64,000 nt of DNA, taken from positions 203,951 through 267,950 of the forward strand of contig SVSP01000001.1 of the NCBI GenBank assembly GCA_015064255.1, written 5' to 3'. The notes beneath the pieces were generated by a model. The model did not search any database. It saw only the letters and a program-made list of their open reading frames with translations, and had not been told where the DNA came from. The position numbers were made by a program, and so were the translations under genes. This document shows positions 24,307-39,061 of the stretch, one piece after another. This stretch comes from Oscillospiraceae bacterium. GTDB lineage: Bacteria > Bacillota > Clostridia > Oscillospirales > CAG-272. The number at the start of each line of letters is the position of its first letter. Within the stretch, counting starts at the first letter, position 1.

Positions 24307-27300
24307 TTAAGCGAAAAGTGCCTTGTAAGCGTGAATTTCAAATGCGTAAGGAGATATTTCCTCGGCGAGCGAAATATATTTGTCGGCTTCTTCGCAGTTT
24401 CCGTTTGCACGGAGTGCGAATGCTTTGAGAATATATCCGCTGAGCAGATTGTTCTTCACGATATTGTTTTCAAAAGGCATCGGAGAGGGTGATCCTACTC
24501 CGTAATAGGTACGAAGATCGTTGTTTTTGATGCGGTCGTCGGCAACGGCGATCATTTCTGACGTAACATCGTCTGCTTCATTGTTTCTGCCGAGCTTTCT
24601 GAGTGCAAGCGCGCGGAAAGCGGAAAGCTCGGAAACTGCCGCTTTGTATATGGCAGCTTCTTCAAAAGCTTTAAGCGCATCGTCGTTTCTGCCAAGCTTT
24701 TCAAGCATATTACCAAGATAGAAATAGATGTGTGCCTCCTGATTGAAGAACGTCTTCGCTTCTCCGTAGCTCTTCGGGACGATAGTAGCACGTCTGAAAT
24801 AATCTTCAGCTTCATCCGTACGGCCTGCATTTTCAAGTGTGAGCGCATAGAGAAGGAACATCCAGGAGTGTTGCTTGGTAAGACGTCCCTCACCGCCCTC
24901 GTAAATGTGGAAACGTTTGCTTGCGGCGAGGTCAATCGACTCCTTGTAGCAGCCCTTGAGAGTGAGAAGGATCACTTTGTCAAGATAGCAGTCGTCGCGC
25001 TTTTCAAAGAGCTCGGGATATTTTTCGTAAACGTCAAGACGCTCATCGGGGGTGGCATTTGAGTTTTTGAGCAGCTGTTGATATTCCATAAGCATTCTCG
25101 GCGAAGTCTTTTTGGTATCAAGTGCGGTCTTCATACAGAGTTTTGCTTTTTCAATATCTCCGCGCTTGTCAAAATATGCAAGTGCGAGATTTCTGTAAGC
25201 TTCTGCTTTTTCGGGATTAATAGCAACACATCTTTCCCAAGCTGAAACAGCGTCGTCATAGCGCTCCTTGTGATAGAAAAGACATCCGAGATAATAGCTT
25301 GCGTTGGATGCGTTTTTGTAAGCGGAGATCGCATATTCAAGTACGGTAATGTCGCTGATTCTGTTAGGGAAGCAGTATCCGTGATGGCAGGCTTCTGCTT
25401 TCGTTATTTCGTATATGCTGTCCTTGCCCATAAGCGAAAGCGTATAAGCGCGGTAGTAGGATACGAGAGGATAGTCCTGCGGTGCAAAATCAAGCGAATA
25501 AAGTGCATCCTCGTAAAGTCCTTCCGAAATATAATCACAAGCAATATCTATGATATTTTCTGCTTTTTCGGCGAAATAAGCAATTTTATCGCTCATATTT
25601 TCAAAATGTGAAAGCTCGAAAATTGCACGGAGATCAAGTGTGTCATATAAGCGGAATTCTTCTGCTACAGCCTTTGCTTTGTCGGCTTTGCCGAGCTTGC
25701 GGAGAATGGCAGCCTTAAGTCCGCCTGCGCGGGAATTGTGCTTTCCGAGAGAAAGCACGACCTCTGTTTTTTCAAGAGCATCTGCGTATCTGCCTTCCGC
25801 ACAGTCGAGCGATGCAAGCTCAAAATATGCCGCTGCACGGTGGCTGTAATTCCAACCTGCACGGAAAAGTGTATCGTAAGCCTCGGAGCTTCTGCCGAGT
25901 TCTTTGAGTGCAAGTCCCTTTAAGTAGAACGCTTCTGTGTCGGTAGGGTGCTGATTTCTCGATGTAAGGCGCTCGATAGCTTTGCCTGCATATTCGATGC
26001 ACTTTTCAAATTCACCCTTGCGGTATGAAAGGCGAGCCATAGAAGTGTTGCATCTGATATCACCGGGATCGCGGGCAAGTCCTTCAAGATAGTAATCCTC
26101 GGGTCTGTAATTATGCTGCTTGTACTGCTCGAGATGATAACCGTTGATGTAAAGCTCTTCAACAGTTGCGATCTCACAGGGGCGCGCAACAGGCTTTCTT
26201 ACTTCGATAGGCTGCTTCTGACCTCTTACGTAAGGCGTATATGAAACGAGCGTCTTTCCTTCGCAGGATACAAGCGAAACTGTAATATCGTTTATGTCTG
26301 AATCGCACGCGGAAATAGTTTTTGTATATGCCTTGTCGGGTGTAAGACTTGCATTTTCGCTGTATATTACGCTGTTTTTATCTTTTACGGTGATTGCTGC
26401 GTTTTCAAAACAGCCCGTTACGTTAAATCCGATAAATATTTCGTTGCCGCGCTTTTCAAGATTTACAGCGGCGTCTATCGTAGCATTTTTCACGTCACCG
26501 ATGTCGCGGATAGGATACCAGTACTGCTCAAATTCGCGGCTCTCGTAAGGAGCGAGCCACGTAAAGTCGGGCTGATTGTCGGTATAAACACCTGTCATAA
26601 GCTCGATGTACGGACCGTTTTTGTCGGTGAGGTTGGAGCACCACATATCTCCGAAATCACCGATACCCCAATGCCAGAGCTTCTTACCGGGGGAAATGTG
26701 GTGATCGGCAACAGTAACGATACCTTTGTTTATTCCTTCGTCGTATCCCGCAACGAAGTCCATATCGGACTGTCCTTGCGAAATGAGGAAAGAAGAGGGA
26801 ACCTTTACTGAGTCGTAACGTGAAATATCAGTACCTTCACCGTAATTAAAGGGACGTGCGGTCTTATACAGACCTTTTGCAACAGGCCAAGAGAGTACGG
26901 CGCGTCTGTCGTGGTCGTTTACCCATTCAACGTCGGGCGGGAATATAGTGCGGTAATCTTTGTTTGCAGGTGCGGCAAGGTTTGCCCACCACATAAATGT
27001 CTGAGGAAGATTCGTGCGGTTATATACCTTTATTTTGGCCTTTATGAAGCTTCTACCGGGGCATACCGTGATACCTGCCATACCCTTCATTCTGTTCATA
27101 GGCTCAACCTCGCCTACCCATACGGTCTTGCTTCCGTCGGGTGCTTCCTCGACAGAGGCTTCAAGCGGCATATACGTTGTGGGGCGGTGATGCTGAGGCC
27201 AGTTGAATTCGATTCCACCCGATATCCAAGGACCGGCAAGACCTACAAGTGCGGGCTTTATAACCTCGTTGTAGTAAATGAAATCGTAGCTTCCGACCTT

Positions 27301-27552
27301 GTCGTATCCGCGGAGTATCTTTCCGCCGATCTCGGGAAGTATATCTGTTTTAACGTATTCGTTTTCAAGAGTATAGACGTCGTATTTTACATCCTCGCAG
27401 GTATCGGAAACCGAATCGGAATAGGGAATAGGATAAACCTTTCCGCTTGCACCCTGATAAGGGCGGTTTTCGAAGAACATAGGAAGCTCTTCTGCTTTTC
27501 CGGGAACATACGTGGGTATAATTCTTTTTTCTTTATTAAGTATGACCTTCAT
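24307..27552 (-). CDS. DUF5107-like N-terminal domain fused to a long TPR array (1081 aa)
   Basis: N-terminal ~350 aa contain the conserved 'SGGIEFNWPQHHRP' block shared with the paralog at 39251. The remainder is TPR-like repeats. No signal peptide. Confidence 0.55.
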   Translation of the reverse strand: MKVILNKEKRIIPTYVPGKAEELPMFFENRPYQGASGKVYPIPYSDSVSDTCEDVKYDVYTLENEYVKTDILPEIGGKILRGYDKVGSYDFIYYNEVIKPALVGLAGPWISGGIEFNWPQHHRPTTYMPLEASVEEAPDGSKTVWVGEVEPMNRMKGMAGITVCPGRSFIKAKIKVYNRTNLPQTFMWWANLAAPANKDYRTIFPPDVEWVNDHDRRAVLSWPVAKGLYKTARPFNYGEGTDISRYDSVKVPSSFLISQGQSDMDFVAGYDEGINKGIVTVADHHISPGKKLWHWGIGDFGDMWCSNLTDKNGPYIELMTGVYTDNQPDFTWLAPYESREFEQYWYPIRDIGDVKNATIDAAVNLEKRGNEIFIGFNVTGCFENAAITVKDKNSVIYSENASLTPDKAYTKTISACDSDINDITVSLVSCEGKTLVSYTPYVRGQKQPIEVRKPVARPCEIATVEELYINGYHLEQYKQHNYRPEDYYLEGLARDPGDIRCNTSMARLSYRKGEFEKCIEYAGKAIERLTSRNQHPTDTEAFYLKGLALKELGRSSEAYDTLFRAGWNYSHRAAAYFELASLDCAEGRYADALEKTEVVLSLGKHNSRAGGLKAAILRKLGKADKAKAVAEEFRLYDTLDLRAIFELSHFENMSDKIAYFAEKAENIIDIACDYISEGLYEDALYSLDFAPQDYPLVSYYRAYTLSLMGKDSIYEITKAEACHHGYCFPNRISDITVLEYAISAYKNASNASYYLGCLFYHKERYDDAVSAWERCVAINPEKAEAYRNLALAYFDKRGDIEKAKLCMKTALDTKKTSPRMLMEYQQLLKNSNATPDERLDVYEKYPELFEKRDDCYLDKVILLTLKGCYKESIDLAASKRFHIYEGGEGRLTKQHSWMFLLYALTLENAGRTDEAEDYFRRATIVPKSYGEAKTFFNQEAHIYFYLGNMLEKLGRNDDALKAFEEAAIYKAAVSELSAFRALALRKLGRNNEADDVTSEMIAVADDRIKNNDLRTYYGVGSPSPMPFENNIVKNNLLSGYILKAFALRANGNCEEADKYISLAEEISPYAFEIHAYKALFA

Positions 27553-27731
27553 CTGTTTTCTCCTTAAAAAATTTTAAAGCTACTTTAATTTTATTAAATT
27601 ATCTTTAATATGTCAAGCCAAATAAAAAAAGATAAAATCATAATTTATTTGTACTTTTATTTTGTATATCTCCTTGATTTTGTAAAAAACAAATGATATA
27701 CTGAAAATATAAAGCATTCGGGAGTTTGAAA

Positions 27732-28829
27732 ATGAAGATTTATATGATAATAGAAGAAGATTTTGCCGAAACTGTGTGGGGCAAGGCGATACTCGAAGGA
27801 ATGAAACACAAATCTGCGGCACTTAAGCACGAGCTGTGCGAAATAAAGAGCTACGATATTGATTTCGGTGAGCAGAAGAGAATAGTAGTGCTTGTCGGTA
27901 CCGCAAATTCGTGGATAAATAAAACGCTCAGAGAGCTGTCAAGATACGATATAAGAGGAATAGTTCTCAACTGTCAGCCGACAGAGCTTGTACCGGGAAC
28001 GAGTTATATACTTATAGATTATGCCTGCGCTACGTACGGCTGTATCGAATATCTTCATTCCTGTGAGCGTAAAAATATCGCTCTCTTTGCCATAAATCCC
28101 AACTCTATTACAGATTCCACCAAACACAGAAGCTTCCTTGAATTCGGACTCAGTGAGTCTGATATCTATATAAGCGACGATTCTCTTTCCGAATGTTATA
28201 AAAGACTTTATGCGAATATAGGAAAATATAATGCCGTAATATGTGCAAACGATATAGCGGCTATAGCTTTGATAAGAAGACTTGAAAAGGATAATATAAG
28301 AGTGCCCGAGGATATTTATATCGTAAGCTTCGGTAATCTCCTTATAGGACGTTATTTTTCCTACCCGCTTACGACAATGACTCTTAACGATGAGGAACTT
28401 GGTCGGCAGGCCGTGGCGATGTACGCTTATCTTGTCAAGAGCGAGGTTGATATAAATATTCAGATGACGATACCGTGTCAGCTTGTCTTAGGTGTCACTA
28501 CCGAATACCGCGAAATGGGCAAGCAGAGCTTCGGAATATCTCTTCATACAGCCGACGATAATTATTTTTATAACGATGCCGATGTCAGCGAGATGATGAA
28601 GATAGAGAATTTCCTCGTCCGCTGTGACGAAACCGATATGAAGATAATCAGCGGTATGCTTTCAAACGTTTCGTATGCAAAAATAGGCGAGAATGCTTAC
28701 ATATCCGAAAATGCGGTCAAATACCGTGTAAAAAGAATGCTTCAAAGCATAAATATTGAATCCAAAACAGAGTTTTGCAATATTATGAAAACCTATTGTA
28801 TGAATATTTCTGAAAAGTTTGAATTTTAA
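27732..28829 (+). CDS. Hybrid regulator: LacI-type sugar-binding domain without N-terminal HTH, plus C-terminal LuxR/GerE-type HTH
   Basis: The periplasmic-binding-protein-like core ('AVICANDIAAIALIRRLEKDNIRVPEDIYIVSFGN') starts at residue 1. The C-terminus 'YAKIGENAYISENAVKYRVKRMLQSINIESKTEF' fits a GerE HTH. Confidence 0.6.
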   Translation: MKIYMIIEEDFAETVWGKAILEGMKHKSAALKHELCEIKSYDIDFGEQKRIVVLVGTANSWINKTLRELSRYDIRGIVLNCQPTELVPGTSYILIDYACATYGCIEYLHSCERKNIALFAINPNSITDSTKHRSFLEFGLSESDIYISDDSLSECYKRLYANIGKYNAVICANDIAAIALIRRLEKDNIRVPEDIYIVSFGNLLIGRYFSYPLTTMTLNDEELGRQAVAMYAYLVKSEVDINIQMTIPCQLVLGVTTEYREMGKQSFGISLHTADDNYFYNDADVSEMMKIENFLVRCDETDMKIISGMLSNVSYAKIGENAYISENAVKYRVKRMLQSINIESKTEFCNIMKTYCMNISEKFEF

Positions 28830-28841
28830 AGGAGAATAACG

Positions 28842-29408
28842 ATGGAATACAGAAAATATATTGAATTTCTAAACGTAATTGAAAAGCTGAAATGCAATAC
28901 CCGCCATTCATGGACGTCAAGCGGCAGACAGGAATCGGTTGCGGAGCATTCGTGGAGACTTGCCGTTATGGCGATGCTTTGTGCCGGCGAGTATCACGAG
29001 CTTGATATAAATAAAGTCATAAAAATGTGTCTGATACACGATTTTGGAGAAGCTATAACGGGCGATATTCCGGCTTTTGTCAAAACCGAGGAAAACGAAA
29101 AGAGCGAGGAAAAAGCAATAGTAACCTTGCTCGAGCTACTCCCCGATCTCGAAAAAGAAGAGCTTGCTTTGCTTTTTGAAGAGATGAACGCACTTGAAAC
29201 GAAAGAAGCGAAACTCTATAAGGCTCTCGACAATATAGAGGCACTTATATCGCATAATGAGGCGGATATTTCAACCTGGCTTCCGCTTGAATATACCGAA
29301 AATCTCGTGTACGGTCAGAAAAATTCCGAGTGGTCAGAGTGGACGAAAGGTCTGCGTGAAAAAGTGAAACAGGATAGTATCAAAAAAATAAATCAAAGCA
29401 AACAGTAA
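28842..29408 (+). CDS. HD-domain phosphohydrolase (YfbR-like 5'-nucleotidase family)
   Basis: 'ESVAEHSWRLAVMA' and 'IHDFGEAITGDIP' HD-motif blocks. Confidence 0.7.
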   Translation: MEYRKYIEFLNVIEKLKCNTRHSWTSSGRQESVAEHSWRLAVMAMLCAGEYHELDINKVIKMCLIHDFGEAITGDIPAFVKTEENEKSEEKAIVTLLELLPDLEKEELALLFEEMNALETKEAKLYKALDNIEALISHNEADISTWLPLEYTENLVYGQKNSEWSEWTKGLREKVKQDSIKKINQSKQ

Positions 29409-29410
29409 AA

Positions 29411-29616
29411 AACAACCCGATAGATTTAATCTATCGGGTTGCTCAGACTGAAGATAAAATAATAAAAGAGAAGTTTTTAGCCAAGGAAATGGGATTAGAG
29501 TCTGAGAGAAGGGGAAAAACTTCGGCGTTTGAGATGGTTTTACCCTTCTCTCAGTTAATGTTTGTGAGTTTGTCTACACTTTGAACAACCCGATAGATTT
29601 AATCTATCGGGTTGCT
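29411..29616. repeat. 33-nt direct repeat (each a perfect 14-bp-stem hairpin) flanking a 140-bp insert
   Basis: AACAACCCGATAGATTTAATCTATCGGGTTGCT occurs at 29411-29443 and again, identical, at 29584-29616. Confidence 0.9.
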
Positions 29617-29627
29617 GTTTATGTGTG

Positions 29628-31832
29628 TTAATCCTGCTTTGCAAGCTCAGCCATACGTTGTGCCATAACGAGCTTGTAGTAGAAGCCTTTCTTGTCGAGA
29701 AGCTCTGCGTGAGTTCCGTATTCAACGACCTTACCTCTGTTAAGAACGAGAAGCTTGTCGGCGTTTCGGAGTGTCGAGAGTCTGTGTGCAATAGCGAATG
29801 TAGTTCTGCCGACAGAAAGGTTGTTAAGAGCATCCTGAATGAGCTTTTCTGTTTCTGTGTCGAGAGCAGCAGTTGCTTCGTCGAGAATAAGTATCTTGGG
29901 GTTGTGAATAACCGCACGCGCGATAGCAATTCTCTGACGTTCACCACCCGAAAGGGAAAGACCTTTTTCACCGACGATGGTGTTATATCCTTGCGGAAGC
30001 TTCATTATGAAGTCGTGCGCGTTGGCTGTTCTTGCAGCCTCAATTACCTCTTCGTTGGAAGCAAGCGGCTTGGAATAACGGATATTGTCGCGAATAGAAC
30101 CGGAGAAAAGGTGTGTTTCCTGAAGAACTACACCGATCTGGGAACGAAGTGCGTTTTGCGAAATATCCTTGATGTTTACGTCGTCAATTTCGATAGCACC
30201 CTCGGTGACGTCGTACAGACGCATTATAAGGTTAATAAGCGTCGTTTTACCGCAACCGGAGTGACCAACGATACCTACGAATTCACCCTTCTTAACTTCA
30301 AGATTGATGTTTTCAAGAACGGGGTTGTAGCTGTCGTATCCGAATGTAACGTTTTTAATGTTGATATCGCCTTCGATTCTGATGTCGATAGGCATTTCAA
30401 TATCGGCAACGTCGGGCTCTTCTTCGAGGATCTCAAGAATCTTCGAGAAGGATGTGATAAATGCCGAAATGTTACGGGGAATAGCGGTTATCTGCATAAG
30501 AGGCTCGTAAATGATGCCCGAATAGCTTGTGAACTGAGAAAGCTCACCGACGTTCATATGACCGCCGAAAAGCATAAGGTTACCGTAGAGAAGAATGAAG
30601 TAGCTACCGAGTCTTATTGTGAAACCTACGAAGGGGAAGACTGTATCGAAGAGCTTCGCGTTGCTTTCTTCCTTCTGAGCCTGAGCTTCGGCATATTTTT
30701 CGAAATCGTCTATCGCCTGTTCTTCCTTACCGAAAGCCTTTACAACACGTATACCGTTAAGGTTATCCTGAAGATAGATGTTAGTTCTGTGAGCGAGTAT
30801 CCAACCGTGAACGTTTCTCTTGTTCATCATGCTCCAGAACTTTGTAATAAAGAATATTGCAAAGGGAAGAGGAATGAATACGAAAAGACACATAAAGGGA
30901 TTGAGCCAAAGAAGAAGTATAAGTGCGAGTATGAACGAGAACGCCTGCGCAACGTATGTGGGGAGAAGGTTCGTTATGAAGTTCTGAACGACAGAAACGT
31001 CATTGTTGATTCTTCCCATAAGGTCACCGGTGGATTTCTTCTGAATCGAAGACATCGAAAGGTTTTCGATCTTTTCGAAGAGAAGTGCGCGAAGCATACG
31101 CATAAATCTGTTACCGGATATCGCAGCAAGACGACCCTGAATAACGTTGATCGCACGGCTTATGAGGTCGAAGGTAATTATCGCGGCAACGATAACGAAG
31201 AATTCCGTGATGTGGTCTTTTCCGTTTTCGGCGAGAATATATTTGTCGATCGCAATTCTCTGAACAGCGGGAACAACAAATCTGAAGATCATAGCGATAA
31301 TAGCTGTGAGAAGCGGGAAGAGCATCATAAGACGCAGACCCTTGGTCATACCCCAAAGCTTTTTGTAGATCTCTTTTTTGTCCTGACAGAAAGGACAGAT
31401 CTTTGTGTGTGCAACGAATGGACGGTTACATTTTGGACAGAATCTCTCGGGTTCATTTGATGTGAGAGGCTCTTTCTTTCCGTGCTTTACGATAAGGTCA
31501 CAACCTGTAGCAACGACTGCATATCTCGGAAGATTTCGTCCTGAGATAAACAGGCAGAGCAGAGTCGATATACCGTCTTTCTTTGCATAGAATCCGCATA
31601 TACCGTACTGTACTTCGGTAGAAAACTCGCTGAGTGAGTAAATATCATACTTGAACAGTAGTTCTCCGTCCAAAAGCTTGTAAATAAATTTGTCGGTAAC
31701 GACTACAAAGCCGTTTACCCTTTTTTCACCCTCAAAGTTGTAAGGCAAACAGTACATTACCTTTTCATCTTCGGCGACAGACGCGTCAAAGGTGGCTTGA
31801 TCCTTTTCGGGCAGGTCAAAAAGAAGTTTCAT
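29628..31832 (-). CDS. ABC exporter (TMD-NBD fusion) with ~150-aa cytoplasmic N-terminal extension ending in a zinc ribbon
   Basis: Walker A 'GHSGCGKTT', signature 'LSGGERQR', Walker B 'ILILDEAT', and N-terminal 'CPKCNRPFVAHTKICPFCQ'. Confidence 0.85.
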   Translation of the reverse strand: MKLLFDLPEKDQATFDASVAEDEKVMYCLPYNFEGEKRVNGFVVVTDKFIYKLLDGELLFKYDIYSLSEFSTEVQYGICGFYAKKDGISTLLCLFISGRNLPRYAVVATGCDLIVKHGKKEPLTSNEPERFCPKCNRPFVAHTKICPFCQDKKEIYKKLWGMTKGLRLMMLFPLLTAIIAMIFRFVVPAVQRIAIDKYILAENGKDHITEFFVIVAAIITFDLISRAINVIQGRLAAISGNRFMRMLRALLFEKIENLSMSSIQKKSTGDLMGRINNDVSVVQNFITNLLPTYVAQAFSFILALILLLWLNPFMCLFVFIPLPFAIFFITKFWSMMNKRNVHGWILAHRTNIYLQDNLNGIRVVKAFGKEEQAIDDFEKYAEAQAQKEESNAKLFDTVFPFVGFTIRLGSYFILLYGNLMLFGGHMNVGELSQFTSYSGIIYEPLMQITAIPRNISAFITSFSKILEILEEEPDVADIEMPIDIRIEGDINIKNVTFGYDSYNPVLENINLEVKKGEFVGIVGHSGCGKTTLINLIMRLYDVTEGAIEIDDVNIKDISQNALRSQIGVVLQETHLFSGSIRDNIRYSKPLASNEEVIEAARTANAHDFIMKLPQGYNTIVGEKGLSLSGGERQRIAIARAVIHNPKILILDEATAALDTETEKLIQDALNNLSVGRTTFAIAHRLSTLRNADKLLVLNRGKVVEYGTHAELLDKKGFYYKLVMAQRMAELAKQD

Positions 31833-31888
31833 AACTGAAGTCCTCTTGTTTTATAAAAAGTATTTCGATTTTTGTGATTTTTAAGATT

Positions 31889-32455
31889 TTACAGATATAT
31901 TTCAATCTTCTTGTAGCTTGCCTTGTCGATCTTGAGGGGATCGTGAATTGAGAAGCAGTTTCCGTCGATATCGGTCATAAGAACGCTGTCGTCCTCAAGT
32001 ATTCTGATATTTGACATAGGGTTGCTCATAACAAAGCTTACCTTGCCGGCACTTGTTTCCGCTTCAAAGTAGCAGTAGCCGAATTTTTCTTTGAGAGAAT
32101 TGATCTTTTTGATTTCGGGGATAAAGTAACGTCTGTCGAGCTCCTCGTTAAGAAGTGCTACGGTATCTGCGTCAAAATCGGAAAGTCTTCTTATAAATCC
32201 GATTTCTGCACCCTTTCCTTTTTCCTTTGATTCGGGCTCTCTGATAGAGATAAACTCATCGGGATCCGAGAGAGGAAATGCTCTTACGGGAACTATTCTT
32301 TCGAATGTCTCGATTTCTCCGTCTTCTTTTGTAAGCTCCAAGGAAATAAGATTTCCTTCAGAACGGAAGAAACGGGAGTTTTCCATTGTAAGGTCTATTG
32401 ATTTGCGTACCGAAAATAAATTTTCATCAAGTTCATTTAATTCCTGATCGGTCAT
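31889..32455 (-). CDS. DUF1854-like protein (ABC-transporter-associated, unknown function)
   Basis: 188-aa acidic soluble protein sandwiched between two ABC exporter genes, the usual context of DUF1854. Assigned from memory of the family. Confidence 0.5.
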   Translation of the reverse strand: MTDQELNELDENLFSVRKSIDLTMENSRFFRSEGNLISLELTKEDGEIETFERIVPVRAFPLSDPDEFISIREPESKEKGKGAEIGFIRRLSDFDADTVALLNEELDRRYFIPEIKKINSLKEKFGYCYFEAETSAGKVSFVMSNPMSNIRILEDDSVLMTDIDGNCFSIHDPLKIDKASYKKIEIYL

Positions 32456-32492
32456 GACTGAAATTCCATCCTTTCTAAAATAACTGAAGTGA

Positions 32493-34841
32493 TCAGCGGC
32501 CCTCTGCGACCTGTTTCATCTGTTCGGTCTGAAGTGTCCACAGCTTGTAATATACGCCCTTCTTTGCGAGAAGTTCCTCTTCCGTACCCATCTCGGCGAT
32601 TTCTCCATCCTCGATAGCCATAAGGATATCGCTGTTGCGGAGTGTTGCAAGACGGTGGGCGATAGTTATTGTTGTTCTGCCTTCGACAAGCTTGTCGATA
32701 GCTTCACTGATCAGTTTTTCGGTTTGAGTGTCCATAGCCGCCGTTGCTTCGTCAAGAATAAGAAGTGAGGGCGAGAGCAGAAGTGCTCTTGCAATAGAGA
32801 TTCTCTGTCTTTCTCCTCCGGAAAGGGTTCTGTATCCGATTCCTATTCGTGTTTCGTAGCCTTCGGGCAGACGCATTATGAAGTCGTGAGCATTTGCGGC
32901 GCGTGCAGCGTTTATGACTTCTTCCATAGTCGCGTCGGGACGCGCGTATCTTATGTTATCTGCAATAGTACCGCGGAAAAGGTATATTTCCTGAGAAACT
33001 ATCGCGATGTTCTTTCTGAGAGAATCGATCTTGATCTTTTTGATCTCGTGACCGTCTATTGAGATCGAACCGCTGATAACGTCGTACATTCTCGTTATCA
33101 GATTTGCTATCGTAGTCTTTCCGCTACCCGTGTGACCTACAAGACCGATATGCTGACCGGCTTTTATTTCAAAGGAAACGTCTTTAAGAATAGGACGGTT
33201 GGGAACGTAGTGGAAGCATACTTTGTCGAACGTAAGACTGCCCTTGACCTCGTCAAGTGTTACTGCTTCGGGATCGTCAGCTATTTCGGGGATCATATCG
33301 ATCGTTTCGAAGTATCTCTGCGAAGAGTTTATAGTATCTGTGATGATGTTTGTGAACGTTGAGAAGAAGTTAAGGGGACCGAATATCATACCGGTGTAAC
33401 CGATGTAGGTTGTAAGTTCACCGTATGTCATACGCTGTTCCATAATTTCGATACCGCCCACACCCCAGATTGCCGTACTCGAGATACCGATAAGAAGACC
33501 GACTACGGGGAAAATCATAAGGGAAATGATGTTTGAACGCAGGTTAGCTTCAAAGAGCTTTGTGGAGAATTCGTAGAAACGCGCACTTTCTTCGGCTTCC
33601 TTTGCAAACGCCTTTACAACTCGTACACCGTTGAGCGAGTCACCGAGCATAGAGTTGAGTGAGGAAGAACGTCTGTAAACGTGAGAGAAGGAACGCCAAA
33701 GCTTAGGAAGCATTATCTTGAATATACACACGATGATAGGAACGGGTATAAAGACTATAAGAGTTAGCTTCCAGTTAAGTATAAACAGGAAGACAGCAAC
33801 ACCGATAAAGTTTACAACGTTTATAACAAGATGGGGAAGACCGTCTATGTAAAAGCTTCGTATTCTTGTAGCATCGTAATTTACTCGGTTGATAAGACGA
33901 CCGGTTGAGTTGTTGTTGAAGAAGGAAAGCGAAAGACGTTGCATCGCATCAAAAACATAGTTCTTCATGTTTTTGGTAACGTGTGTTGACATATATGCGT
34001 TTGCACGGTTTTGGAGTATGCCGATTCCGAGTGAGAAAAGCGCAAGACCGACTATCAGACCGACAACGATATACACGTATTTTTCTTCGTGGAGAAGACC
34101 GGTTATCTGCGTGCCGCTTTCATCGTATGTAGGCTGTGCGATTACCTGGTCGTAAAGTATCTTACCGCTTATAAACGGAGAAGATAGCGACACGGCGGAA
34201 GAAAGCAGCATACAGATGATTACGAGCGTAAATTGGAACTTAAAGTCCTTGAAGTACTGCAGAAGCCGTATAAGAGTGCCCTTTCGGTTTGCACAGTTTT
34301 CGCAGATCTTTCTGTTCTGGTCGGGATATACCGTTCCGCACTTCGGACACTTTGCGTTGAACTGCTCAAAGAGAGGATCGTCTTCCGAAACGGTTTCTCC
34401 GCGGACGATTCTTTCCCAAATAGTTATAAAGGCAAAGAGGCGTCGTTTTATCGAGTTTGTACCGCAGCAGAGGATAATGGTTTCGGTATCCTTTGCCTTG
34501 TGGTACTGATGAAGTCTTTTTTTGTAATCCTCGTCAGCCTCGCCTTCTTCGCGTGACGGAATCTTATCCTTGTGAAGAAGAGCGAGCATACGGTTGGTGG
34601 TCATAAAGTTATCGACGTAGGGCGCGGAAACGTAGTCGAGATCAAAGCTTTCTGCCGAATTATCCTTGGCATTAAATCTCCAGAGCGTTTTCGCATCTGC
34701 CGTGATAGCAAGCCACATACTTTGGAAGCATTCGTTTGTATCAAGGTCGAGGTGAAGCGCGACGACAAAGTCATCTTTGTTCATCGAGTTCGCCTCAAGT
34801 ATGGCGTACAGTTCGTCATACGATTTTTCAAGAGGCAACAT
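32493..34841 (-). CDS. ABC exporter (TMD-NBD fusion) with ~190-aa N-terminal extension ending in a zinc ribbon
   Basis: 'GHTGSGKTT', 'LSGGERQR', 'LLILDEAT', and N-terminal 'CPKCGTVYPDQNRKICENC'. Confidence 0.85.
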   Translation of the reverse strand: MLPLEKSYDELYAILEANSMNKDDFVVALHLDLDTNECFQSMWLAITADAKTLWRFNAKDNSAESFDLDYVSAPYVDNFMTTNRMLALLHKDKIPSREEGEADEDYKKRLHQYHKAKDTETIILCCGTNSIKRRLFAFITIWERIVRGETVSEDDPLFEQFNAKCPKCGTVYPDQNRKICENCANRKGTLIRLLQYFKDFKFQFTLVIICMLLSSAVSLSSPFISGKILYDQVIAQPTYDESGTQITGLLHEEKYVYIVVGLIVGLALFSLGIGILQNRANAYMSTHVTKNMKNYVFDAMQRLSLSFFNNNSTGRLINRVNYDATRIRSFYIDGLPHLVINVVNFIGVAVFLFILNWKLTLIVFIPVPIIVCIFKIMLPKLWRSFSHVYRRSSSLNSMLGDSLNGVRVVKAFAKEAEESARFYEFSTKLFEANLRSNIISLMIFPVVGLLIGISSTAIWGVGGIEIMEQRMTYGELTTYIGYTGMIFGPLNFFSTFTNIITDTINSSQRYFETIDMIPEIADDPEAVTLDEVKGSLTFDKVCFHYVPNRPILKDVSFEIKAGQHIGLVGHTGSGKTTIANLITRMYDVISGSISIDGHEIKKIKIDSLRKNIAIVSQEIYLFRGTIADNIRYARPDATMEEVINAARAANAHDFIMRLPEGYETRIGIGYRTLSGGERQRISIARALLLSPSLLILDEATAAMDTQTEKLISEAIDKLVEGRTTITIAHRLATLRNSDILMAIEDGEIAEMGTEEELLAKKGVYYKLWTLQTEQMKQVAEGR

Positions 34842-35223
34842 AATGAATAATCCTTTCGGTTTATATACGCATAGATATAGATTTTATTCAATCCATTACA
34901 AAGTAATTATACCATAGCCAAAACGTTGTCAATTCCAAAACTAAACATTAACTCAAATTGTACGATATGCATATTTTTGACTGTGTTATTTTGGTTATAT
35001 TGATGTAAAAACGATACGATTTTCAGACCTTAAATACGAAAAAGCGCCGATTTGAAAATGAAAAATCAAGAAATAAATCCCACGAAAGCAAATTAAAGCT
35101 CGAAAAAAGGTAAAAGACAAGCAAAAAAAGCGGTTAAAAGATTTTACTAGCAAACAAATACCCAAATCCAATAATTTATTAAAAAACGTAGAGAAATGTA
35201 GGGAATTATTTTTTGAAAATCTA

Positions 35224-35252
35224 TTGACGAGCGAATAAAAAAGTTGTATAAT
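35224..35252 (+). promoter_or_regulatory. Near-consensus sigma-A promoter in front of the IS1634-like gene
   Basis: TTGACG, 17 nt spacer, TATAAT. It lies 35 nt upstream of the ATG (RBS GGGAGG). Confidence 0.6.
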
Positions 35253-35286
35253 CAAGTCAGTAAAAATCTTTTGGGAGGTAATATTT

Positions 35287-36903
35287 ATGACGGTAAAATA
35301 TGTTAAAAGCGGAAACGATTTTCGCGTTTATATCGTTGAATCTTACAGAGTTCCCGGAGAGCAAAATCCCAAATCAAGAACACTTCTGAAGCTCGGACTT
35401 TTGTCTGAACTGAAAAAGAAACACGAAAATTTCGAAGAGTATATAGAAAATATCATCGCTCGTCTTTCTGCAGAGCAAAAGGCGCATCGTGACAACAAGG
35501 ATTCCGAATTTTCATCCGTCCTTGATGAACTTGAATATGGCGGGAAATCTTATTCCGAAGAATATCATATCGGTCATATGCTCTTGAAAAAAGTGTGGGA
35601 TGAGCTTAATTTGCCTTACTTTTTCAGGTATTACGGTTCAAAAATGATGGTCGGCGGTGCTGATATCGAGCACGCGGCATTTGCATTCTGCGCAGAAGCT
35701 TTTTATGAGCTCGGACCGCAGAGAGATGTCTGGGACAGAGAAAAATGCTTTATCGAAAACGATATATCCGAATTCGGAAACGTGATGAAAATGCTCGATA
35801 TTTTCGATACCGTAAGAGATAAGCTTTTTTCTTACATAGACAAGAAAAACGATATAAGGGAGAAAAACGCGGTGGATTTTATCCACGTTTTCCCGAGTGT
35901 TTTTGAGTGTGAATCGTCACAGGGCGGAAATCTTAAATATACGGAAACGCCCGCACTCTGCTATATGCACGCAAATAAGGACGGTATAGTATATTCGGGT
36001 GAGGTTTCGGTCGGAAATTCAAAGATCACCGACGAATTTCTTGATAAGAAAAGTAAAAATGATAAAACGGGCAATAAGCACGCAAGTAATTCGATATTCG
36101 TTTCAAACAGATTTGCACCCGAGTACAGTGACCTTATAAAAATAAGGGAAAAAGGGCACGGATATATTACGTATAACAGAATAAAAACGCTGTCGAGAAG
36201 TATTCAAAACGATATGCTCGCATCTGAAAACTATACGGCAATAAACAGCGATTTTAAGTATAAGGTTCGTACGAGAAGTGAAGAACTCAGATATAATATG
36301 CAGGATATCCTTCTTGAAGAAAAGTATATCTACACGTATTCTCAGAAGCGTTTTAAAAAGGAAAGAAACGACAGACTTTCCCTTTTGGCAAGAACCTTGC
36401 CCTTTGCGACGGATGTTGTCAAAAACCATACGTCTTCGGATGATAATGAGATCGATAAGCAGTTTGACGGATACAGATGTATAAGATCTTCGGGGTGCCG
36501 TATGGCAAACAGCGAAATAATTGACGTGTGCAGACTTTGCGCGCGCCTTGAAGATTACGTCAGAAGCATCAGAAGCGTCGTTGAAGCGCGTCAGAGCGTT
36601 GTGTGGAATACAAAAAGAATACGCGGATTTTTCACGTTTGCATTTTTGGTGGTGCGCCTTCTCAATATGATAGAGCTTAAGGTCAGTACGCTTGCGGAAA
36701 ATAAATTATCGTACGACAGAATAATATCCGCAATAACGGACGCTAAGGTAATTCCTGTCGATAAAAACGGCAAGGTATGGAAAACCGCTAATATAAGTGA
36801 TGATTTCAGACAGATCGCAGAAGCGCTCGGAGCAGAACAGCTTTCTGATATGTATTTGGCGCAAACACTGAAAAAAGTAAGCGGATTTACGATAAGACTT
36901 TGA
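35287..36903 (+). CDS. IS1634-family transposase-like protein, apparently degenerate/domesticated
   Basis: The N-terminus 'FRVYIVESYRVPGEQNPKSRTLLKLGLLSEL' and C-terminal 'FDGYRCI...LCARLEDYVRSIRS' parallel IS1634 (IS4-like DDE) transposases. I found no terminal inverted repeats. Confidence 0.55.
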   Translation: MTVKYVKSGNDFRVYIVESYRVPGEQNPKSRTLLKLGLLSELKKKHENFEEYIENIIARLSAEQKAHRDNKDSEFSSVLDELEYGGKSYSEEYHIGHMLLKKVWDELNLPYFFRYYGSKMMVGGADIEHAAFAFCAEAFYELGPQRDVWDREKCFIENDISEFGNVMKMLDIFDTVRDKLFSYIDKKNDIREKNAVDFIHVFPSVFECESSQGGNLKYTETPALCYMHANKDGIVYSGEVSVGNSKITDEFLDKKSKNDKTGNKHASNSIFVSNRFAPEYSDLIKIREKGHGYITYNRIKTLSRSIQNDMLASENYTAINSDFKYKVRTRSEELRYNMQDILLEEKYIYTYSQKRFKKERNDRLSLLARTLPFATDVVKNHTSSDDNEIDKQFDGYRCIRSSGCRMANSEIIDVCRLCARLEDYVRSIRSVVEARQSVVWNTKRIRGFFTFAFLVVRLLNMIELKVSTLAENKLSYDRIISAITDAKVIPVDKNGKVWKTANISDDFRQIAEALGAEQLSDMYLAQTLKKVSGFTIRL

Positions 36904-36958
36904 AATTTGACCGTGAAAGCGGCAATTTATAAAAGAAAAAATCAAAGGAGATTTGATT

Positions 36959-37993
36959 ATGAACACATCGGAAGTAAAATATTTTTCTTGGAAAGACGGC
37001 ACACAGGTGACTGTAAATAACGGAAGCGGATATCCCAGACTTTTCAAACTCAAGGACGGACGTCTTGCCTGCGCATTTGATGGTATGTACGTAAAATTCA
37101 GCTCGGATGACGGCCTCACCTGGTCGGATGCGGTAGCGGCAAGTAAATTTCCCGAATACGAAGGACTATTCTGCGCAAACGCAGCACTCTGGCAGCTTGA
37201 TGACGGGGAAATTTTCCTCGCATACCGTGCAAACGGAAGAAAATCGACTACAAAAAACGGTGAACATTATACATCTATTCAGGTGAGCGCAAGTAAGGAC
37301 AACGGAAAAACTTGGTATCACCATTCGACAGTTTACGAGCACTCGGGAAAGGGCGGAGTTTATGAGCCTCATTTTGAGCTTATGGACGGAAAAGTTACCG
37401 TTTTTTATGCTAACGATACGGAAGAGGTAAACGTCCTTCCTTATCAGTACATCGAATATAAGCAGTGGATAAACGGTGAGTGGACAAACCGCACGGTGGT
37501 TTGCGACGGCGGAAAGCATAAATCAAGAGACGGTATGCCCGTATGGCTTCAGCTTCGCGACGGAACTTACGCTTGTATAATCGAAGCCTGGAATACAAGC
37601 GGCAACGGACATATGATGATAAAGCTCGTTACCTCCAAAGACGGAAAAGAATGGTCGGAGCCTGTTGATATCTACACCTCAAAGAAGGGTAAGGCAGGCG
37701 CGCCCTATCTTGCAGAGCTTCCGAGCGGTCAGCTTATGGTTGCTTTCCAGACAGACGAGGATATGACGACCGAGGGCGATATGTATTCGGCGATGAAGAC
37801 GATAATCTCCGACCTCACACCTGCCGATAAGCTTACTGCGGCAAACTTCAGTGAGCCCGATATGCCGTTTGAAACACCCGACGGATATCACAGCATATGG
37901 AACGGACTTTACGTAAGCGGAAACTACGTTTATGCTATCACGGGAACGAACTATCCGAGCGGACAGATAAGACTTAACAGATATGAATGGTAA
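36959..37993 (+). CDS. BNR/Asp-box six-bladed beta-propeller, sialidase-like glycosidase (copy 1)
   Basis: Asp-boxes 'SSDDGLTWS', 'SKDNGKTWY' and 'SKDGKEWS'. No signal peptide. Start at ATG 36959, 8 nt after AAAGGAG. Confidence 0.65.
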   Translation: MNTSEVKYFSWKDGTQVTVNNGSGYPRLFKLKDGRLACAFDGMYVKFSSDDGLTWSDAVAASKFPEYEGLFCANAALWQLDDGEIFLAYRANGRKSTTKNGEHYTSIQVSASKDNGKTWYHHSTVYEHSGKGGVYEPHFELMDGKVTVFYANDTEEVNVLPYQYIEYKQWINGEWTNRTVVCDGGKHKSRDGMPVWLQLRDGTYACIIEAWNTSGNGHMMIKLVTSKDGKEWSEPVDIYTSKKGKAGAPYLAELPSGQLMVAFQTDEDMTTEGDMYSAMKTIISDLTPADKLTAANFSEPDMPFETPDGYHSIWNGLYVSGNYVYAITGTNYPSGQIRLNRYEW

Positions 37994-38017: not shown

Positions 38018-39061
38018 ATGAAAACAAAGCATTTTTCTTGGAATGACGGAATACAGACCGTTGTAAATAACGATAAAGGCTATCCGCGTCTGCTTAAGTT
38101 ATCCGACGGTCGTCTTGCCTGTGCATTTGACGGTATGTTCGTGAAATTCAGCTCGGATGACGGTCTTACTTGGTCGGATGCCGTAGCGGCAAGTAATTTT
38201 GCCGAATACGAGGGACTCGTGTGCGCAAATGCTGCACTTTGGCAGCTTGAGAACGGCGAGATACTTCTCGCATACCGCGCAAACGGTAAAAAAACGGGAA
38301 CTCCCGATGGCTCGTACTATTCGTCGATACAGGTAAGTGCAAGTAAGGATAACGGAGAAACCTGGTATCACCATTCGACGATCTATGAAAATCTTGAGCT
38401 GTCGGGCGCATACAAGGGCGTCTGGGAGCCTCATTTCGGTATGCTGAACGGAGTTCTTACCTGCTTTTACGCAAATGACTCAACGAATTTGATCACGACC
38501 TATCAGTATATCGAATATAAGCAGTGGATAAACGGTGAGTGGATAAACCGTACCGTTGTCTGCGACGGTGAAAAGCATAAATCAAGAGACGGTATGCCCG
38601 TATGGCAGCAGCTTCGCGACGGTACTTACGTTTGCATAATAGAAGGCTGGAATACTGCGGGTAACGGAAAAATGATGATAAAGCTCGTTACCTCAATGGA
38701 CGGAATAAAGTGGTCTGAGCCTGTCGATATTTACGTTCCCAAAAAGGGAGTTGCGGGAGCACCGTATATAGCAGAGCTTCCAAACGGACAGCTTATGGTT
38801 GCTTTTCAGACGGACGAGGATATGACAAAGGGGGCGGGAGCGCGTTTTGCCTCGATGAAGACGATAATATCAGACTTTACGCCCGCGTGTGAGCTTACAG
38901 CGGAAAATTTCAGCGAGCCCGAAATGCCCTTTGAAACACCCGACGGATATCACAGCAACTGGAATGGACTTTACGTCAGCGGAAATTACGTTTACGCGGT
39001 TACGACCACAGACTATCCCGAGCGTCAGATAAGACTTAACAGATATAAATTTGAAGAATAA
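38018..39061 (+). CDS. BNR/Asp-box sialidase-like glycosidase (copy 2, tandem paralog)
   Basis: Collinear with copy 1 over its whole length ('SSDDGLTWS', 'SKDNGETWY', 'SMDGIKWS'). Long stretches of near-identical DNA. Confidence 0.65.
   Translation: MKTKHFSWNDGIQTVVNNDKGYPRLLKLSDGRLACAFDGMFVKFSSDDGLTWSDAVAASNFAEYEGLVCANAALWQLENGEILLAYRANGKKTGTPDGSYYSSIQVSASKDNGETWYHHSTIYENLELSGAYKGVWEPHFGMLNGVLTCFYANDSTNLITTYQYIEYKQWINGEWINRTVVCDGEKHKSRDGMPVWQQLRDGTYVCIIEGWNTAGNGKMMIKLVTSMDGIKWSEPVDIYVPKKGVAGAPYIAELPNGQLMVAFQTDEDMTKGAGARFASMKTIISDFTPACELTAENFSEPEMPFETPDGYHSNWNGLYVSGNYVYAVTTTDYPERQIRLNRYKFEE

Follow-up and report, generated by a model that had tools for sequence, protein, structure and literature searches.

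The stretch of DNA analysed here, 64,000 nucleotides of contig SVSP01000001.1 from an Oscillospiraceae bacterium (the window), carries on its minus strand two genes for half-transporters of the ATP-binding cassette (ABC) type, named here ABC-A and ABC-B, with the gene for a DUF1854 protein between them. The three products probably work as one machine, a heterodimeric type-I ABC exporter with a soluble partner, in which the N-terminal heads of both half-transporters and DUF1854 form a cytoplasmic platform for cargo; we hold this reading with moderate confidence. Judged by sequence, the module represents, within Clostridia, the family of ABC exporters linked to DUF1854, in a presumably heterodimeric and cyanophycin-independent variant. 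It belongs to a family that is already known and is not a new kind of system.

All 80 related loci have ABC-A, DUF1854 and ABC-B in this order and on a single strand, wherever the contig is long enough. These loci were drawn from species-representative genomes, a collection in which 290 relatives were confirmed, and all of them come from metagenome-assembled genomes of gut, rumen or digester Clostridia (Oscillospiraceae, Candidatus Flemingiibacterium and 'Eubacteriales'). The nearest relative of the trio, with 92-95% protein identity, belongs to a Clostridia genome assembled from sheep rectum. Contigs of distant homologues, which share 29-32% identity with ABC-B in the N-domain, have the trio as well, while the genes flanking it vary from locus to locus. 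An earlier note on this DNA, made from the sequence alone, had left room for a trio that falls apart in other genomes; in every related locus examined it stays together.

The module is uncommon and patchy across the phylum. DUF1854 was found in 14 of the 301 sampled genomes of the phylum, in 23/41 close relatives and in five of the eight genomes of the same genus. Two architectures occur within the phylum, namely the trio and a pair consisting of one ABC gene followed by DUF1854, and most of the single ABC genes of the pair loci are closer to ABC-A than to ABC-B.

Transporter core, cytoplasmic heads and soluble partner

Both half-transporters have the domain composition of type-I (PF00664) exporters, each with an ABC_membrane and an ABC_tran domain. 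In ABC-A the PF00664 match covers residues 205-490 and the PF00005 match residues 552-701; in ABC-B the corresponding matches cover residues 174-444 and 506-655. The two proteins share 35% identity over 711 aligned positions and are paralogous half-transporters within one unit, which presumably pair as a heterodimer. The first hydrophobic segment begins near residue 200 in ABC-A and near residue 164 in ABC-B, and the outside loops between the predicted hydrophobic segments are short in both.

The canonical Walker A, signature and Walker B motifs that the earlier note had claimed for both halves were read directly from the proteins. ABC-A has the Walker A motif GHTGSGKTT, the signature LSGGERQR, the Walker B motif LLILDEATAAMD and the H-loop IAHRL, and ABC-B has GHSGCGKTT, LSGGERQR, ILILDEATAALD and IAHRL, respectively. 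The Walker A Lys, the Q-loop Gln, LSGGE, the Walker B Asp-Glu and the H-loop His are 97-100% conserved among 66-74 relatives of both halves. Since the key residues of both halves are kept at this level, both ATP sites are consensus sites. Neither is degenerate, in contrast to many bacterial heterodimeric exporters, and both should be catalytically competent.

Each half-transporter begins with an N-terminal extension which, as had been described before, ends in a CPxC...C(P/E)xC ribbon just before the first transmembrane helix (TM1); the ribbons read exactly as quoted then. The heads must lie in the cytoplasm, because nothing hydrophobic and no signal peptide is found before TM1, a Lys/Arg-rich stretch precedes it, and type-I exporters have their N-terminus on that side of the membrane; zinc ribbons likewise are cytoplasmic modules. 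The ribbon cysteines are 99-100% conserved in ABC-A (66 relatives) and 100% conserved in ABC-B (74 relatives), and distant homologues with an N-domain identity of only 23-36% retain them as well. Across the phylum, a CxxC...CxxC ribbon lies ahead of TM1 in every DUF1854-adjacent ABC protein examined, in trio and pair loci alike, bar one, an 889-residue open reading frame (ORF) in locus L125 of which the first 260 residues were scanned. The pattern of two near-invariant CxxC knuckles 10-15 residues apart is that of a Cys4 zinc ribbon, and both sites are predicted to bind zinc.

What precedes the ribbon could be recognized at the level of structure. In comparisons of the isolated N-domains with Pfam, no family covered either extension and zinc-ribbon models matched weakly, below threshold; sequence and profile searches of the PDB with the N-domain returned nothing but weak zinc-finger noise. 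A match of the extensions to a well-characterised regulatory domain would have counted against the earlier note, and the Pfam and PDB searches gave none. Residues 1-165 of ABC-B were modelled with AlphaFold2 from an alignment of 75 sequences, and the model had a predicted local distance difference test (pLDDT) score of 90.1 and a predicted template modelling (pTM) score of 0.80. It consists of one helix, seven strands (25-96) and a long C-terminal helix (97-117). In a Foldseek search of the PDB its top matches were mostly PH, PTB and FERM-F3 domains, including the bacterial PH domain 3dcx, with probability ~1.0, a modest best E-value of 3.5e-3, target template modelling (TM) scores up to 0.70 and identity of 8-17%. 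On this model, residues 1-128 of ABC-B appear to adopt a PH-like fold, a statement about the fold and not about common ancestry. Thus the ribbon part of the earlier description of the extensions has stood, and the PH-like fold ahead of it, which that description missed, was brought out by AlphaFold2 and Foldseek.

The N-extension of ABC-A is probably a divergent version of the same head. In a profile-profile alignment with the ribbon included, the two extensions match with 97% probability (E=5.7e-11), which suggests that the N-domain of ABC-A may be PH-like as well. It carries a poorly conserved insert at ~88-120 according to the conservation profile of its relatives. Four further cysteines of the ABC-B head, C28, C79, C93 and C111 (window 31832-31449), are 85-100% conserved in close relatives. 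A second metal site was considered for them and rejected, given that distant homologues have Ala, Ser or Leu in place of C28 and C93; the cysteines probably belong to the core of the domain.

The assignment of the small protein to DUF1854, for which the earlier note had asked a test by hidden Markov model, is clear: PF08909 matches over profile positions 1-128 of 130 with 136.5 bits against a cut-off of 26.8 (E=6.4e-40). The protein is indeed acidic (isoelectric point 4.60, 39 Asp and Glu against 25 Lys and Arg), has no hydrophobic segment and is encoded by a single copy in this genome. Its mean pairwise distance over 63 loci is 0.36, like that of the membrane domains, while the heads are less conserved, with 0.50-0.60. 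DUF1854 is therefore strongly constrained, on par with the membrane domains. The AlphaFold2 model (pLDDT 89.4, pTM 0.63) has two lobes rich in beta structure, with a helix after each. Searches of the PDB by DUF1854 sequence and profile found no relatives. In a search by fold, HIN-200 and Rtt106 double-barrel proteins came up at a low probability that is not interpretable, and homology of DUF1854 to the PH-like heads gave no signal in a profile test (probability <1%).

A hint at physical association comes from gene fusion. In a 939-residue protein from an ENA contig of 3 kb (P0094), DUF1854 is joined to the N-terminus of an ABC-B homologue by a 7-residue linker (...EIYL-LYRRNAD-MKLLFDL...). This read-through may be either genuine or due to an error of sequencing at the stop codon. 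Together with the fusions of ABC and DUF1854 that Pfam curators as well as Price et al. (bioRxiv 10.1101/072470) mention, it provides a hint of the Rosetta-stone kind that DUF1854 and the transporter associate.

Separately from this, PF08909 was found above cut-off in the archaeon Sulfolobus acidocaldarius, used as a control genome, so the domain reaches well beyond Bacteria.

Relation to known systems and proposed mechanism

The best-scoring NCBIfam family for both half-transporters is NF052233, 'cyanophycin metabolism-associated ABC transporter', with 529.8 bits for ABC-A and 501.9 bits for ABC-B, both below the equivalog cut-off of 880. The small protein scores best with NF052234, 'cyanophycin metabolism-associated DUF1854 family protein', at 89.1 bits, below the cut-off of 150. 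Residues 7-727 of ABC-B align to profile positions 15-745 of the 766 positions of NF052233; because the alignment starts at profile position 15, that family has the N-extension of ABC-B too. All distant homologues whose best family is NF052233 carry the PH-like region and CxxC...CxxC.

DUF1854 shows cofitness with an ABC transporter and two cphA-like genes in Acidovorax and Cupriavidus, and it was proposed to be a subunit of an ABC exporter whose cargo is an amino-acid polymer (Price et al., bioRxiv 10.1101/072470). This is the sole functional study brought up by literature searches on the domain and on ABC transporters associated with cyanophycin, which returned no biochemical or structural work. 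The architecture that the earlier note called unusual is present but had already been catalogued in NF052233/NF052234, and DUF1854 had already been linked to an ABC exporter by Price et al. (bioRxiv 10.1101/072470).

Our module and the NF052233/NF052234 system have in common an N-extension with ribbon, the exporter membrane domain, the ATPase domain and a DUF1854 gene beside the ABC gene. They differ in gene content and host. The beta-proteobacterial system has one ABC gene linked to cphA/cphA', whereas here two half-transporters flank DUF1854, the hosts are gut and rumen Clostridia instead of Proteobacteria, and a cyanophycin synthetase is absent. In the whole genome (2.5 Mb, 94.5% complete) the best match to TIGR02068 reached 100.6 bits against a cut-off of 850 and covered the Mur-ligase part only; no cphA or cphA' was present in the window or in the related loci. 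Since the Clostridia version works without genes like cyanophycin synthetase, either its cargo differs or the function of the family is broader than its database name.

Few ABC exporters carry a fused cytoplasmic recognition domain; examples are bacteriocin and toxin exporters with their C39 domain and IrtAB with its reductase domain, and each has been informative about cargo selection. The DUF1854-linked family, widespread in uncultured gut and rumen Clostridia, would add a different solution, a PH-like head with a zinc ribbon and a dedicated soluble subunit. Like exporters of the HlyB type and PCATs, in which an extra C39 or C39-like cytoplasmic domain before TM1 recognises the cargo, our half-transporters are of type I and carry such an additional domain; the HlyB subfamily model gives them 338-387 bits, as expected for relatives by the core. 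However, the head is a PH-like sandwich with a zinc ribbon and not a papain-like C39 domain (no Peptidase_C39 match in Pfam at E<=0.1 for the full proteins or at E<=10 for the isolated N-domains), a DUF1854 subunit is added, and there is neither a membrane-fusion or outer-membrane partner nor a leader-peptide gene here. With IrtAB of Mycobacterium the module shares a heterodimer of two half-transporters with a fused cytoplasmic N-domain. In IrtAB only one subunit has this domain, a siderophore-interaction domain with a reductase fold that binds FAD, whereas here both subunits carry the PH/zinc-ribbon head and no flavin-binding signature was seen in the Pfam scans. The predicted ABC-B head itself, seven strands capped by a C-terminal helix, resembles bacterial PH domains (DUF1696, PDB 3dcx) and eukaryotic PH, PTB and FERM-F3 domains; unlike it, they are not joined to a zinc ribbon and an ABC exporter, and no similarity in sequence to them is detectable.

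How might such a machine work? ABC-A and ABC-B would pair as a heterodimer, and DUF1854 would dock on its cytoplasmic face together with both heads. The ribbon of each half lies immediately ahead of the elbow helix and TM1. Below the ATPase domains, both heads would make up a platform together with DUF1854. This platform would capture or gate a product of the cytoplasm, with a peptide or polymer as the most plausible candidate, and would pass it to the membrane domains for ATP-driven export. A peptide or polymer is the best guess because peptides are common ligands of PH and PTB folds and a polyamide is what the genetics in Proteobacteria suggests; the cargo here is not cyanophycin, since a cyanophycin synthetase is missing from the genome. 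A bolder version of this scheme, which we regard as possible though doubtful, is that of a mechanistically distinct class of exporters, in which PH-like heads and the two-lobed DUF1854 make a chamber for cargo capture and gating and a peptide or polymer is exported without cyanophycin synthetase. If true, the material exported by gut Clostridia could bear on their cell envelope or on how they interact within the gut. The value of the module is limited by the fact that its family is already modelled in Pfam and NCBIfam; still, structural and genetic studies of it would be reasonable.

Complex formation, transport direction and the nature of the cargo are all matters that we infer, and several observations weigh against the platform exporter. 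The clustering of neighbouring ORFs from the 80 loci revealed no other widely shared family and no conserved biosynthetic neighbour; no small Asn/Gln-rich ORF lies around the operon, and no cargo gene is linked to it. When the N-extensions of ABC-A and ABC-B are aligned by profile without the ribbon, the match is not significant (E=0.0088). The DUF1854 model has no convincing structural neighbour in the PDB (best TM-score ~0.25). Mirror-tree comparisons of DUF1854 with the ABC domains gave correlations of 0.6-0.86 and partial correlations <=0.31, and singled out no contact domain; the docking of DUF1854 on the transporter is presumed. Finally, the direction of transport is assumed, since exporter-fold ABC proteins can also be importers, as are IrtAB and YbtPQ.

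The extra parts may instead serve control. In a regulated pump, DUF1854 and the heads would be an on/off switch that senses a metabolite, a second messenger or the redox or zinc state and controls the ATPase cycle, and the transporter would otherwise be an ordinary exporter of lipids or drugs. The best-scoring characterised relatives after NF052233, MsbA-type lipid exporters, would agree with this, as would the ability of PH-like domains to bind small ligands or lipids and the fact that Cys4 sites can be redox-sensitive. We nevertheless consider it unlikely, because a c-di-AMP receptor of the PF06153 type is absent from this genome, because the beta-proteobacterial genetics tie the family to polymer synthesis and not to lipid or drug phenotypes, and because the patchy distribution (23/41 relatives, 14/301 phylum genomes) argues against a housekeeping lipid flippase.

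Clearly less probable is an importer with an exporter fold, in which the heads and DUF1854 receive or process an incoming substrate. The example of IrtAB, a heterodimeric importer of exporter fold with an N-terminal cytoplasmic domain on one subunit, makes it conceivable, and here too the N-domains face the cytoplasm and a linked gene for cargo synthesis is absent. But nothing like a siderophore-interaction or reductase domain was matched in Pfam, genes for a binding protein or a receptor are absent from the surroundings of the operon, and the only genetic data for the family point to export. Least probable of all, and in our opinion hardly credible, is the idea raised in the earlier note of a non-transport, mechanotransduction system like MacB, FtsEX or LolCDE, which uses ATP for work outside the membrane. 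The presence of extra domains, and nothing further, speaks for it. These domains are cytoplasmic, only short loops are predicted on the outside, the membrane domain belongs to the six-helix exporter type PF00664 and not to FtsX or MacB, the ATP sites are canonical, and no periplasmic or extracellular partner gene was conserved among the clustered neighbours. The exporter with a cargo platform remains the reading that we prefer.

Operon layout and neighbouring genes

The three minus-strand ORFs lie exactly where they had been placed before, separated by gaps of 37 bp (ABC-A/DUF1854) and 56 bp (DUF1854/ABC-B). Table 1 gives the coordinates of the features. The TTGACA and TGgTATAAT elements 5′ of ABC-A plausibly constitute an extended -10 promoter; a simple promoter scan that accepts only spacers of 16-18 nt does not list this site, whose spacer is shorter. 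Besides the ribosome-binding site (RBS) of ABC-A, AAGAGGA is located 8 nt ahead of the ABC-B ATG, and AAAGGA ~13 nt upstream of the DUF1854 gene. The hairpin directly 3′ of ABC-B likely marks the end of the transcription unit. With these short gaps, the promoter-like site and RBS at the 5′ side and the hairpins at the 3′ side, the unit looks like one operon, in agreement with the first description, and it is predicted to be transcribed as such.

Table 1. Features of the ABC-A/DUF1854/ABC-B unit (window positions) and members of the orphan family found near related units (locus:positions).
Feature	Position	Strand	Basis
ABC-A, 782-aa half-transporter: N-domain, predicted zinc ribbon, type-I exporter membrane domain, ATPase domain	32493-34841	-	ORF, Pfam
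DUF1854 protein, 188 aa, acidic, soluble	31889-32455	-	ORF, PF08909
ABC-B, 734-aa half-transporter: predicted PH-like domain, predicted zinc ribbon, membrane domain, ATPase domain	29628-31832	-	ORF, Pfam
ABC-A N-domain, residues 1-160, putative divergent counterpart of the ABC-B PH-like domain	34362-34841	-	Profile alignment; fold inferred
ABC-A predicted zinc ribbon CPKCGTVYPDQNRKICENC, C165/C168/C180/C183	34293-34349	-	Cysteine conservation
ABC-B predicted PH-like domain, residues 1-128	31449-31832	-	AlphaFold2 and Foldseek
ABC-B predicted zinc ribbon CPKCNRPFVAHTKICPFC, C132/C135/C146/C149	31386-31439	-	Cysteine conservation
Promoter-like site 5′ of ABC-A: TTGACA 34932-34927, 15-nt spacer, extended -10 TGgTATAAT 34914-34906	34906-34932	-	Read from sequence
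RBS GAAAGGA, 9 nt ahead of ABC-A ATG	34851-34857	-	Sequence
Palindromic hairpin directly 3′ of ABC-B stop	29586-29614	.	Terminator-like scan
Second copy of that hairpin, then T-run on minus strand, terminator-like	29410-29444	-	Terminator-like scan
Members of orphan ~110-aa family	L102:3741-4091, L010:4138-4476, L013:7258-7602	-	ORF clustering

The hairpin CAACCCGATAGATTtAATCTATCGGGTTG is present twice, ~175 bp apart, between the ABC-B stop and a convergent gene for an HD-domain protein.

In ~25 of the 80 loci, as well as on two further contigs, ABC-A has upstream of it a divergent gene of an orphan family of ~110-116 aa whose proteins end in ...AYYTYYRK and have no match in Pfam, NCBIfam or PDB. 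In the genome studied here its homologue is not linked to the trio (G000:C15:43941-44270, the same as L140:6942-7274 on the plus strand) and lies beside a gene for a TypA/BipA-like GTPase. The family co-occurs with DUF1854 in 21 of the 23 carriers among close relatives. When the phylum sample was searched by profile, all 13 other DUF1854 carriers lacked the family, and one genome that has no DUF1854 contained it. Since the association fails across the phylum, the orphan protein was rejected as a core part of the module and its position is regarded as clade-limited synteny.

On the plus strand, divergent from ABC-A, lies an IS1634-like gene (35287-36903). It is not a recent insertion, because the locus of a sister species (L023) is collinear with window positions 24908-37993 across this gene at ~83% nucleotide identity. 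Two tandem paralogues of ~346 aa (36953-37993 and 38018-39061, plus strand) look BNR/sialidase-like and have no signal peptide. A third, longer relative of these paralogues adjoins the orphan 110-aa gene on contig C15 (L140:3287-4882, minus strand).

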